From Escherichia phage T4_ev151, in sequence record LR597660: DNA of 64,000 bases; one strand, given 5' to 3'. Shown here piece by piece: positions 7,164 to 17,051 of this stretch. The notes below the pieces were generated by a model. That model was not told the origin of the DNA. It worked only from the letters and a program-made list of their open reading frames with translations, and searched no databases. Numbering within the stretch: the first letter of the stretch is position 1; each line of letters begins with the position of its first letter. The position numbers and the translations under genes are program-made.

Positions 7164-7634
7164 TTAATCATGTTTCCACACCCCATCGGTATTTGACCAA
7201 AGTCGCTGATTATCTGATCCTCGCCACAGCTTTTTAGTCGGAAGATTTTTCTCATACTTCCCATCAATAATAACATCAACATATTTAAGCATTTCTAGTT
7301 GTTTAATATCTTCAAACTTATATCCTGTCCACAACCAAATGCTTTTATTGGGATAAAGATTTTTTACTGTTTGAACAATGCAATGAATAACATCTCGATT
7401 GTCAGGATAGAGAGGGTCTCCTCCAGTTATAGTCAATCCTTCTATATAATCATTATTCAAACATTCAATTAATTGCTCTAGTGTTTCGCCAGTGAATGGA
7501 ATACCATTTCTAGCATTCCATGTTGATTTATTATAACACCCTTCACATTTATGCAAACAACCTGTAACGAAAAGAACGACCCTGCAACCAGGGCCATTCA
7601 CAAAATCGCAAGGATAAAATCTATCATAATTCAT
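7164..7634 (-). CDS. nrdG: Anaerobic ribonucleotide reductase activating protein (radical SAM)
   Basis: 156 aa; CxxxCxxC cluster motif GCLHKCEGCYNK; ATGA coupling to nrdD. Confidence 0.9.
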   Translation of the reverse strand: MNYDRFYPCDFVNGPGCRVVLFVTGCLHKCEGCYNKSTWNARNGIPFTGETLEQLIECLNNDYIEGLTITGGDPLYPDNRDVIHCIVQTVKNLYPNKSIWLWTGYKFEDIKQLEMLKYVDVIIDGKYEKNLPTKKLWRGSDNQRLWSNTDGVWKHD

Positions 7635-9448
7635 TGGTGTTTAACCCTATGCATGATTTCTTTGTTTTTACCGAGATTAAATCCGCGTTCGTTCGGATTT
7701 CCCAAATAACCACATGTTCTTCTTATGGTATTCATCTTTTTAGGATCAGTTTCTCCACAAATAGAACAAACAAATCCGTTTTCAGTAGGAGTCATTTCAT
7801 GGGTACTTCCACATGTAAAACATTTATCTACCGGCATGTTAACACCAAAATAATCTAAATGTTGTGCAGCATAATCCCATACGGCCTCAAGGCCTTTTAA
7901 GTTATTTTTCATATCAGGAAGTTCAACATAAGAAATGTGACCACCTGTCGCAATGAAATGATATGGCGCTTCACGAGAAATCTTTTCAAACGGAGTAATA
8001 TTTTCTTCTACTGAAACATGGAAACTGTTAGTGTACCAACCTTTATCGGTAACATCTTTTACGCTTCCATATTTTTCTGTATCTAGTTTACAGAAGCGAT
8101 AACAAAGGTTTTCAGCAGGAGTCGAATATAAACTAAAAGCAAATCCGGTTCTTTCAGTCCACTGTTTAAGATGAGCATTCATTTTAGTTAAAATTTCCTG
8201 TCCAATATCACGACCGACAAGAATATTCAATTCGTGAATACCAATGTATCCTAAAGACACTGAACTTCTGCCGTTTTTAAATAACTCAATTATATCGTCA
8301 TCAGGTTTAAGACGAACCCCGAATGCACCTTCTTGGTAAAGAATAGGAGCAACAGTCGCTTTAACTCCTTTTAAGGAACTAATTCTACACATCAAAGCTT
8401 CAAAACATAAATCCATTCGTTCATTGAACAATTCAACAAATTTCTGTTCATTGAACTGTGTTCCAATATAAGAATCTAACGCGATGCGAGGAAGATTCAG
8501 TGTTACAACACCAAGATTATTACGTCCATCAAGAATTTCATTACCAGTCGAATCTTTCCATACGCTCAAGAAACTACGGCAACCCATTGGAGAAACAGGA
8601 ACAGATGAACCAGTGATAGCTTTATTGTTCTTAGCTGAAATAATATCAGGATACATCCTTTTGCTTGCACACTCTAGAGCAAGCTGCTTAATATCATAGT
8701 TCGGATCGTCTTTGTAAAGATTAACGCCTTCTTCGACGAACATAACAAGCTTAGGAAAAATAGGAGTTATCCCATCACGACCGAGACCTTTAATACGATT
8801 TTTCAGAATTGCTTTCTGAATCATTCGTTCAGTCCAGTCAGTTCCCGTACCAAATGTAATTGTTACAAAAGGAGTTTGTCCGTTTGAACTAAAGAGAGTA
8901 TTTACTTCATATTCATAAGCTTGGAATGCATCGTATACGTCTTTTTCTGTTTTAGATTGAGCATAATTCAACGCATCGGCGATTTGCCATTTTTCTGCAT
9001 CCTCAATATGTTTTGCATAGGTGCGTTTAACATAAGGAGAAAGTACTTTATCTACATTAGCAAAAGTCGTTCCGCCATATTGGTGAGAAGCAACCTGTGC
9101 AGTAATTTGTGCCATAATTGCAGTAGCAACACCGATTGATTTAGGAGTTTCAATCTGCGCATTACCAAGCTTAAATCCGTTCTCAAGCATTCCTTTTAAA
9201 TCTACTAAACAGCAATTAGTAAATGGAAGAGCAGGGGAATAATCAATATCATGGAAATGGATAATTCCGCTTTCATGCGCTTTCATAATAAAAGACGGGA
9301 CCATATTTTTGGCAATGTGTTTAGACACAATACCAGCCATAAGGTCCCGTTGAGTTGGAAAAACACGAGAATCTTTATTAGCATTCTCGTTTAAAAGGTC
9401 TTTATTAGTTTTATGAATCAATCCTTCAATTTCTTTTTCAATTGTCAT
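7631..9448 (-). CDS. nrdD: Anaerobic ribonucleoside-triphosphate reductase (glycyl radical), uninterrupted
   Basis: 605 aa continuous ORF; C-terminal glycyl-radical motif RRTCGYLG; C-terminal Cys cluster. Confidence 0.95.
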   Translation of the reverse strand: MTIEKEIEGLIHKTNKDLLNENANKDSRVFPTQRDLMAGIVSKHIAKNMVPSFIMKAHESGIIHFHDIDYSPALPFTNCCLVDLKGMLENGFKLGNAQIETPKSIGVATAIMAQITAQVASHQYGGTTFANVDKVLSPYVKRTYAKHIEDAEKWQIADALNYAQSKTEKDVYDAFQAYEYEVNTLFSSNGQTPFVTITFGTGTDWTERMIQKAILKNRIKGLGRDGITPIFPKLVMFVEEGVNLYKDDPNYDIKQLALECASKRMYPDIISAKNNKAITGSSVPVSPMGCRSFLSVWKDSTGNEILDGRNNLGVVTLNLPRIALDSYIGTQFNEQKFVELFNERMDLCFEALMCRISSLKGVKATVAPILYQEGAFGVRLKPDDDIIELFKNGRSSVSLGYIGIHELNILVGRDIGQEILTKMNAHLKQWTERTGFAFSLYSTPAENLCYRFCKLDTEKYGSVKDVTDKGWYTNSFHVSVEENITPFEKISREAPYHFIATGGHISYVELPDMKNNLKGLEAVWDYAAQHLDYFGVNMPVDKCFTCGSTHEMTPTENGFVCSICGETDPKKMNTIRRTCGYLGNPNERGFNLGKNKEIMHRVKHQ

Positions 9449-9918
9449 TTTAAACTCTTTCTAAGCTGCTTCTTAAATGAAGCTATTAACTGTGTTTTGG
9501 TGTCAGATTCATTATATTCAAATCCTCTTTGAAGCATCTCGGCCATCATTTCCTCTTTTCCTAAACGAGAAAATTCCTTTGATTTATCTCCAACAAAGTT
9601 AGGGTGAATATTATTTTGGGTGTAATCGGATTTTAAGTAAGTAAGTAAATTTTCTAACCATTCAAGATAATCAACACCCTGTCCCTTTAAGCCAGAACGA
9701 TTAAATTTATGCTTCATTTGACCTTCTGCGGCATTGCAGAGATTACAAAGCAATCCACGTACCTTTCCTGCTTTTGGTCCATTTAATTCATGGTCATGAT
9801 CAAGGTGATTAGCTTGAACATCAGGATTTAGTTCTCGTTGGCAAATTAAGCATTTACCGTTTTGTGCATCATAAAATTTCTGTTTTTCTTCTTTATATAA
9901 TTTGCCAGTCAATAACAT
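9445..9918 (-). CDS. 49: Endonuclease VII (Holliday junction resolvase) gp49
   Basis: 157 aa, matches recalled T4 endo VII (MLLTGKLYKEEKQKFYDAQNGKCLICQREL...). Confidence 0.95.
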   Translation of the reverse strand: MLLTGKLYKEEKQKFYDAQNGKCLICQRELNPDVQANHLDHDHELNGPKAGKVRGLLCNLCNAAEGQMKHKFNRSGLKGQGVDYLEWLENLLTYLKSDYTQNNIHPNFVGDKSKEFSRLGKEEMMAEMLQRGFEYNESDTKTQLIASFKKQLRKSLK

Positions 9919-9924
9919 AATAAA

Positions 9925-9947
9925 CCCTTACCTTAAATAGATAAGGG
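9925..9947 (-). promoter_or_regulatory. Stem-loop sequestering the gene 49 ribosome-binding site
   Basis: Inverted repeat ccctta/taaggg 7 nt upstream of gene 49 ATG; the SD (UAAGGG) lies in the 3' arm. Confidence 0.45.
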
Positions 9948-9959
9948 TATTTATTATTT

Positions 9960-10445
9960 TCAAGTATTGTAAAACATTTGATTCAATCGCTTATATTGCC
10001 GAATCTTTTGGTCAGAAAAAGAAATTTGGGTTTCAAGCCATTCAATATATTCTGCCGCAGCTTGCATCAAATTTCCTTCATAGCCATCGTTATTTTCTTG
10101 TGCAGCTAATTTAGCTAATGCGTATGAAATACGTTCACCTTGAAAATCGGCTTTAGGCTTCTGAACAACTTGATTAGTTCGCTCTACAACTTCTTCAATT
10201 TCGCCATTTTCAACGGATTCAGTATTCCATAAGCACCAATACGTAATTGGCTTATCATAGATATTAATAATCTTTCCGTCGGAAAGTTCAATTTCAATAA
10301 TTCCAGTATCAGGTTCTATATCATCTTCACATTCTTTTGCAAGTTCACGAACTTTAAAGACAGTACCTGCACTAAGTTCCGGCCAGTAATTACACAGCCC
10401 TGTATCAACACGATTAATTCTAAACCACTTATCTACTGTAATCAT
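9960..10445 (-). CDS. pin: Pin-like protein (Lon protease inhibitor position)
   Basis: 161 aa from ATG 10445 (track start 10463 is TTG); GGAG SD; size and position match T4 pin. Confidence 0.55.
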   Translation of the reverse strand: MITVDKWFRINRVDTGLCNYWPELSAGTVFKVRELAKECEDDIEPDTGIIEIELSDGKIINIYDKPITYWCLWNTESVENGEIEEVVERTNQVVQKPKADFQGERISYALAKLAAQENNDGYEGNLMQAAAEYIEWLETQISFSDQKIRQYKRLNQMFYNT

Positions 10446-10485: not shown

Positions 10486-10515
10486 ATTATATACTGTTTC
10501 TTCATCAGTGTAAAC
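10486..10515 (-). promoter_or_regulatory. T4-type early promoter upstream of pin
   Basis: Minus strand GTTTAC, 18-nt spacer, TATATAAT. Confidence 0.5.
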
Positions 10516-16523: not shown

Positions 16524-17051
16524 TTATGCGAGTACCGTCTTTAACCGTTCTTCAAACTTCCGAAGAGTATTTTGGCGTTCAGCTCTTTGCTTTTTGTAAG
16601 TTTCAATACGCTCTGAAATGAGAGTGTATCGTTCATTTACTGATTCTTTCATAAAATCAGGAATTTCACGAGAAGCTTTAATCTCGTCAAATTTATCAAT
16701 AACAGCTTGCTCTTCAGCAATTAAGTTATCATACATCAAAATATCTTTCTTGATGAACTCAATATCTTCTTGAGTTACACGAGATAATTTAGATGCTTTA
16801 TCCTTTTTGTACTGTTCGTTAGTATCACGAGACCAGTGTAATGTACGATTTTTATTCGTATTTTTGTAAATTTCTACAATACCAATCTCATCGATAATAA
16901 CGATCCAATTCCAACGAGATTTGTAAATTTGTCCTCCATCAACCGTGATTTCACCTCCGATTGAGATGTCATTAAAGAACTTGCTTTGTGCTTCTGATTT
17001 AAATTTACCATCATTGTAATTTACCAGGTTGAAAATATCTTTAGCGTTCAT
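16524..17051 (-). CDS. Hypothetical protein
   Basis: ATG at 17051 with GGAGGAACAGAAA SD; track N-terminal extension translates the promoter. Confidence 0.55.
   Translation of the reverse strand: MNAKDIFNLVNYNDGKFKSEAQSKFFNDISIGGEITVDGGQIYKSRWNWIVIIDEIGIVEIYKNTNKNRTLHWSRDTNEQYKKDKASKLSRVTQEDIEFIKKDILMYDNLIAEEQAVIDKFDEIKASREIPDFMKESVNERYTLISERIETYKKQRAERQNTLRKFEERLKTVLA

Follow-up and report, generated by a model that had tools for sequence, protein, structure and literature searches.

On the long early transcripts of bacteriophage T4, the first ribosome-binding site (RBS) of gene 49 is reportedly sequestered, and the late transcripts are said to start just upstream, as described by Barth and colleagues (Barth, Powell, Trupin & Mosig, Genetics 120:329). 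For this sequestering mechanism, Edgell et al. (2010) refer to Barth et al. (1988); their text prints '39' at this point, and judging by the reference 49 seems to be meant (PMC2988022). According to the same authors, the RBS-sequestered genes are all late genes situated on long early or middle polycistronic transcripts (PMC2988022). A passage of another T4 review names 'T4 genes e, soc, 49, and I-TevI' as cases in which an RNA helix formed on long transcripts sequesters the Shine-Dalgarno sequence (SD) and/or the AUG, and within that passage the bypass by means of a late promoter is described in detail for gene e (PMC3014915). In the leader of this lysozyme gene, a helix sequesters the RBS on early read-through transcripts, and one or more late promoters either directly precede its 5′ strand or lie inside it (McPheeters et al., 1986; PMC3014915), much as in the gene 49 leader studied here. 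The gene e leader differs in having two exact TATAAATA promoters and another stem sequence; moreover, the part of the review that deals with its structure limits the conservation to close T-even relatives (PMC3014915), whereas the gene 49 module is found in many genera. The T-even homing endonuclease genes (I-TevI, I-TevII, I-TevIII, segB and Aeh1 mobE; PMC2988022) likewise combine a late promoter with a hairpin and place a nuclease gene inside early or middle transcription units; these, however, are mobile and selfish, whereas gene 49 belongs to the core genes of recombination and packaging. The masking mechanism of gene 49 is already known, having been described for T4 in 1988, and the sequence of the element in the present genome is identical to that of T4. 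What our analysis adds is the breadth of its conservation and the covariation support for the helix.

The window (the whole stretch of 64,000 nucleotides analysed here) comes from a phage that, judging by its sequence, is a Tequatrovirus, a relative of T4 at about 97% identity and not T4 itself. A 1.1-kb region of the locus matched 693 phage records, almost all of them T-even (Tequatrovirus), with 96.8% identity to a T4 record and the best value, 99.3%, to phage teqdroes; over 25 kb the best match was about 97%. The genes and sites that frame the element are the following:

9445..9918, minus strand: gene 49, encoding the recombination/packaging endonuclease VII, 157 aa (ORF; protein identity to T4 gp49)
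9916..9918, minus strand: AUG start codon of gene 49 (its A and U, at 9918 and 9917, are paired in the outer helix)
9960..10445, minus strand: pin, encoding an inhibitor of the host Lon protease (ORF; PHROG match 3.4e-66; T4 annotation)
10486..10514, minus strand: sigma-70/T4-early-type promoter-like site TTTACA-17-TATAAT, upstream of pin (11/12 consensus matches; hexamers conserved in T4)

The gp49 protein is identical to that of T4, and many Tequatrovirus entries with an endonuclease VII annotation match it at 100% identity. Its co-oriented upstream gene is pin, and the 41-nt spacer between the two holds the element. Since the pin stop codon (UGA, 9962-9960) lies 2 nt ahead of the outer helix, the full hairpin is carried by read-through transcripts, and the early-type promoter-like site before pin could be a candidate source of such long transcripts. 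The initiation region shares with that of T4 the gene itself, the upstream pin, the hairpin, the SD and AATAAATA, and positions 9918-9960, comprising the whole element, match the T4 record AF158101 base for base, although the genome is that of another Tequatrovirus, about 97% identical locally.

For this spacer, the original prediction had proposed an inverted repeat (ccctta...taaggg) that places the SD of gene 49 inside a stem 7 nt from the ATG. We found the repeat as claimed, at 9925-9930 and 9942-9947 of the plus strand, and in the predicted fold UAAGG at 9930-9926 is buried in the 3′ arm at the distance given; the strand of gene 49, which had been left out, is minus (CDS 9445-9918, ATG 9918-9916). 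Read 5′ to 3′ along the gene 49 mRNA, the features are:

9951..9957, minus strand: 5′ strand of the outer A-U helix (fold; overlaps the promoter; not conserved in Mosigvirus)
9948..9955, minus strand: late-promoter-like octamer AATAAATA, one mismatch to TATAAATA (motif search; conserved TAAATA core)
9939..9948, minus strand: 5′ arm of the inner stem, ACCCUUAUCU (fold; contains the predicted late start at about 9942)
9934..9938, minus strand: loop AUUUA (fold; length and sequence variable among relatives)
9930..9934, minus strand: second SD-like sequence AAGGU, 11 nt before the AUG
9924..9933, minus strand: 3′ arm of the inner stem, AGGUAAGGGU (fold; covarying columns 28-36 of alignment A2)
9926..9930, minus strand: Shine-Dalgarno sequence UAAGG, inside the 3′ arm and 7 nt before the AUG
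9917..9923, minus strand: 3′ strand of the outer A-U helix (fold; includes the A and U of the AUG)

The inner stem pairs 9948-9939 with 9933-9924 over 10 bp, one G.U included, and is joined past a 2-nt bulge (9950-9949) to an outer helix of 7 A-U bp (9957-9951 with 9923-9917). Besides the SD, the first two bases of the AUG (A and U) are paired in the predicted structure; the AUG is separated from the 3′ arm by UUUAUU. The calculation of fold energies bore out a stable stem: the minimum free energy (MFE) of a 66-nt segment is -16.4 kcal/mol (z = -3.3), as against -8.3 +/- 2.4 kcal/mol in dinucleotide shuffles, 0 of 200 of which equalled the native stability. Equally good folds are found in 0.3% of the 45-nt windows on that strand of the 64 kb, amounting to 23 distinct sites, and opening the gene 49 RBS costs 16.5 kcal/mol, the third highest value among the 81 candidate gene starts with an SD (median 5.5). 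When 9700-10200 was compared with Rfam under a permissive E-value, there were 12 hits, all of them sub-threshold, the best being ohsC_RNA with 26.7 bits against a gathering threshold of 50. The genome is AT-rich, and the outer A-U helix and AATAAATA are each unremarkable when taken alone, as might be expected if the hairpin were a functionless inverted repeat arisen by chance in AT-rich intergenic DNA; both the shuffles and the position of the fold in the top 0.3% of 45-nt windows argue against such an origin, and the comparative evidence given below bears on it still more directly.

T4 late promoters have TATAAATA at -13 to -6. The near-consensus late promoter that had been predicted within the structure is present as AATAAATA; it lies, however, outside the main stem, adjoining the 5′ arm with its last base, which is the first base of that arm (9948), and overlapping only the weaker, non-conserved outer A-U helix. 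From the usual late-promoter geometry, a late start would be expected about 6 nt past the octamer, near 9942 and inside the 5′ arm, and a transcript begun there would have the inhibitory 5′ arm removed. We found no enrichment of either octamer in the window: there are 7 copies of AATAAATA, where shuffles predict 15.9 +/- 3.8, and 11 copies of TATAAATA, where 12.3 would be expected. As the octamer alone is not above chance, the promoter call cannot stand on the motif only; its significance comes from its conserved position together with the T4 experiments. The record of phage ASO78A labels this site 'T4-late promoter with 1bp mismatch', and the Mosigviruses have an exact TATAAATA at the corresponding site. 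As a separate observation, the window-wide under-representation of AATAAATA evident from these counts could reflect selection against spurious late-promoter-like sites.

The arrangement suggests a mechanism in which transcripts begun upstream, for instance at the early-type promoter before pin, would pass through pin and contain both hairpin arms; the 5′ arm (9948-9939) and its A-U extension would then hold the SD, together with part of the AUG, in a paired state, and 30S binding would be poor. Late in infection, gp55-directed RNA polymerase would instead initiate about 6 nt downstream of the AATAAATA promoter, near 9942; the 24-nt late leader would then retain only AUCU of the 5′ arm, no helix could form, and the SD and AUG would be free. 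In our calculations, 16.5 kcal/mol is needed to open positions -14 to +3 of the long transcript and 2.8 to open those of the predicted late transcript, the latter (from 9942) having an MFE of -2.0 kcal/mol, and the probability that the SD is unpaired is 0.00 in a 181-nt read-through RNA versus 0.32-0.94 in the predicted late RNA. We accordingly place at roughly 0.9 the probability that the element is a cis-acting RNA switch confining the synthesis of full-length endonuclease VII to late infection. Such a T4-type switch, with poor translation from long early transcripts and efficient translation from a short late one, had been part of the original prediction, and it is supported by the identity to the T4 element, the T4 literature, the difference in opening costs and the covariation across genera. 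For the early and late 5′ ends and for the difference in translation, which the T4 reviews report, we draw on the T4 literature or on inference, with the sequence identity to T4 as the bridge. Translational coupling from the pin stop was also considered as the main mechanism and set aside: with its usual footprint, a terminating ribosome would probably reach the outer A-U helix and not the inner stem.

For comparison across the Straboviridae, we combined 20 annotated phage loci from GenBank with 79 from IMG/VR and obtained 93 usable leaders, sampling Tequatro-, Mosig-, Dhaka-, Gapriver-, Winkler-, Marfa-, Slopek-, Krisch-, Tulane-, Angel- and Lazarusvirus, among other genera. A TAAATA core is located 12-34 nt before the ATG in 90/93 gene 49 leaders (46 distinct sequences). 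On folding, the 3′ arm covers the SD/AUG and the 5′ arm lies mostly upstream of the predicted late start in 45 of the 46 distinct leaders; in the single exception (L075) the 5′ arm is situated upstream of the promoter, which preserves the switch logic. The sequences of the arms diverge among relatives, with pairs such as CCCUUAUCU/AGGUAAGGG, AGUUCAUCU/GAGGUGAACU, GAUUCAUC/GAGGUGAAUC, CUCUUAUC/GAGGUAAGAG, CUAUCAUC/GAGGUGAUAG, GAGUCAU/AUGACUC and AAGAGCAU/AUGCUCUU. In alignment A2, an unguided MAFFT alignment of 23 distinct sequences in which a 9-bp helix was scored, the TAAATA core is invariant and 99% of the cells of the helix pair, versus 40-55% with the partners slid. Double changes were seen in 44 cells, as opposed to 13 +/- 3.6 in shuffles, the covariation score was 0.51 (0.14 in shuffles), and compensatory changes occur at four pairs, which show as many as four types of pair apiece. 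The same helix was recovered independently by RNAalifold, along with an extra pairing of the last three promoter bases (AUA) with a UAU overlapping the AUG. Read from these alignments, the cross-genus covariation shows that the helix is maintained by selection, and it serves as an independent, non-experimental proof of the helix. With 99% pairing held by compensatory changes over 23 divergent sequences, the covariation effectively refutes an origin of the repeat by chance, to which we give next to no credence.

The repeat is a near-perfect palindrome as DNA too, and endonuclease VII cleaves cruciform and branched DNA, both of which would suit an element acting at the DNA level, such as a cruciform or a protein-binding palindrome that is a substrate or operator of the enzyme or of some other protein that binds DNA. 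We nevertheless hold this to be extremely improbable. A U.G pair (A2 columns 15-30) is invariant, and it is valid only in the sense-strand RNA, since in DNA it would give a T.G mismatch on one strand and A.C on the other; this argues for an RNA-level and not a DNA-level element. Likewise, the loop and arms vary freely so long as the pairing of the RBS persists, and in some lineages (AS-gz) the pairing partner has become the AUG together with the codons that follow it, a shift that is sensible only for an mRNA.

The comparison also bears on the genomic setting of the RNA switch. Gene 49 of the Vibrio Schizotequatrovirus is preceded by divergently oriented genes, with no co-oriented gene upstream, and its leaders lack both a TAAATA core and a fold that strongly occludes the RBS, which takes 7.4 kcal/mol to open; this group constitutes a natural control whose state fits the switch model. 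Even where ORFs are inserted, the promoter-hairpin module stays directly before gene 49. We consider it likely, if with somewhat less assurance than the switch itself, that the module of promoter, hairpin and RBS is an ancient, selectively maintained unit across most Straboviridae, with its arms rewritten by compensation and its target shifting between SD and AUG, and that it is missing where gene 49 has no co-oriented genes upstream (Schizotequatrovirus).

Several observations concern the variation around this module. Many relatives have extra ORFs, of about 59 aa or of other kinds, between pin and gene 49 (L002, L003, L004, L007, L008 and L020), and in distant genera the upstream neighbour has been replaced (by nrdC, a mom-like gene or pin fragments) and the module kept. 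In the non-T-even genera, the SD is a GAGG that tops the 3′ arm and is spaced 7 nt from the AUG (A2 columns 27-45). The T-even-type phages have an extra UUUAU(U) between the stem and the AUG (9919-9934 in the window), with the aligned AAGG at 11-12 nt and the UAAGG of the lower stem at 7 nt. The working SD thus seems to have moved within one helix between lineages.

Conservation across genera likewise helps to weigh another role for the hairpin, namely that it is mainly a Rho-independent terminator or a 3′-end stabiliser of the pin unit and that the masking of the RBS is incidental. It resembles such terminators in being a stem-loop followed by a U-rich stretch: a loose pattern scan matched it with 10 pairs, 4 of them G-C, and the tail TTATTATGTT with at least 5 T, and a terminator label is found in some relatives, namely phages OE5505, G2285 and G53, where ARNOLD predicts it at -10.7 to -11 kcal/mol. 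However, the stem is weak and A/U-rich (G-C in 4/10 pairs), the U tract is interrupted, and the element overlaps a promoter and an RBS. The U-rich tail is, moreover, not conserved where the helix is, just 1-3 of 8 positions being U in Slopekvirus, Angelvirus, L056, L062 and others, and it is partly dictated by the conserved Met-Leu-Leu N-terminus. In contrast, what the genera have kept is the helix, the TAAATA that adjoins it and its overlap with the SD/AUG, and a terminator leaves unexplained why the late-promoter core always adjoins the 5′ arm and the RBS is always in the 3′ arm. Further, T4 reviews, in the passages that deal with the gene, place gene 49 on read-through transcripts (PMC2988022, PMC3014915). 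Hence, we judge termination or stabilisation as the principal role to be unlikely, a side function being more likely than a main one. For annotation, recognising the RNA switch would be a gain, as several GenBank records label the element merely as a predicted terminator.

Given its T4 precedent, the element serves as a positive control, indicating that a scan of sequence can recover a genuine regulatory RNA. Its distribution suggests that delaying the synthesis of a junction-cleaving nuclease to late infection has been widely selected in T4-like phages and, if true, would argue that premature synthesis of endonuclease VII is generally harmful. If this breadth is unpublished for gene 49, the module would count as one of the more widely conserved cis-regulatory RNA structures of T4-like phages.

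Beyond the element, the locus departs from that of T4 in the nested product of gene 49 and in the downstream gene. Codon 53 of gene 49 (9760-9762, minus strand) is GUA, as opposed to the GUG that in T4 is the annotated start of the nested 12-kDa gp49′ (AF158101 46699), and the annotated nested product therefore cannot begin at that codon here; an in-frame UUG is left at codon 56 (9753). In nearly all sampled relatives this codon is GUU, GUC, GUA, AUU or AUA, GUG being found among the close relatives only in T4 and L022, and the nested start does not look conserved in the sequences compared. The nrdD gene (7631-9448, minus strand) is a single unbroken ORF of 605 aa, without the group I intron bearing I-TevII that is present in T4. 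The record of phage ASO78A (L002 984-1008) has an annotated T4 middle-promoter-like site, GCTT-N13-15-TATAAT, in the 3′ part of gene 49 and upstream of nrdD; with such a site inside gene 49, the expression of nrdD need not rely on read-through of the hairpin.

Finally, the six most occluded RBSs among the 81 candidate gene starts of the window are all on the minus strand, and belong to genes for a RegB-like endoribonuclease (ATG 26981), a 175-aa protein (17051), endonuclease VII (9918), lysozyme e (30638), a SegB-like homing endonuclease (35398) and endonuclease V (denV; 30084), so that the set comprises the lysozyme and four nucleases. The lysozyme e homologue has the same design as gene 49, with an opening cost of 15.6 kcal/mol, and the segB-like gene (CATAAATA) the same late-promoter/hairpin arrangement; both are documented T4 cases, and late-promoter octamers are present at the RBS hairpins of both. 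In the hairpins of regB, the gene at 17051 and denV, the loop contains instead a -10 element that resembles TATAAT, TATACA or TATAT, which suggests that these three genes may bypass their hairpins in the same way from a non-late promoter.
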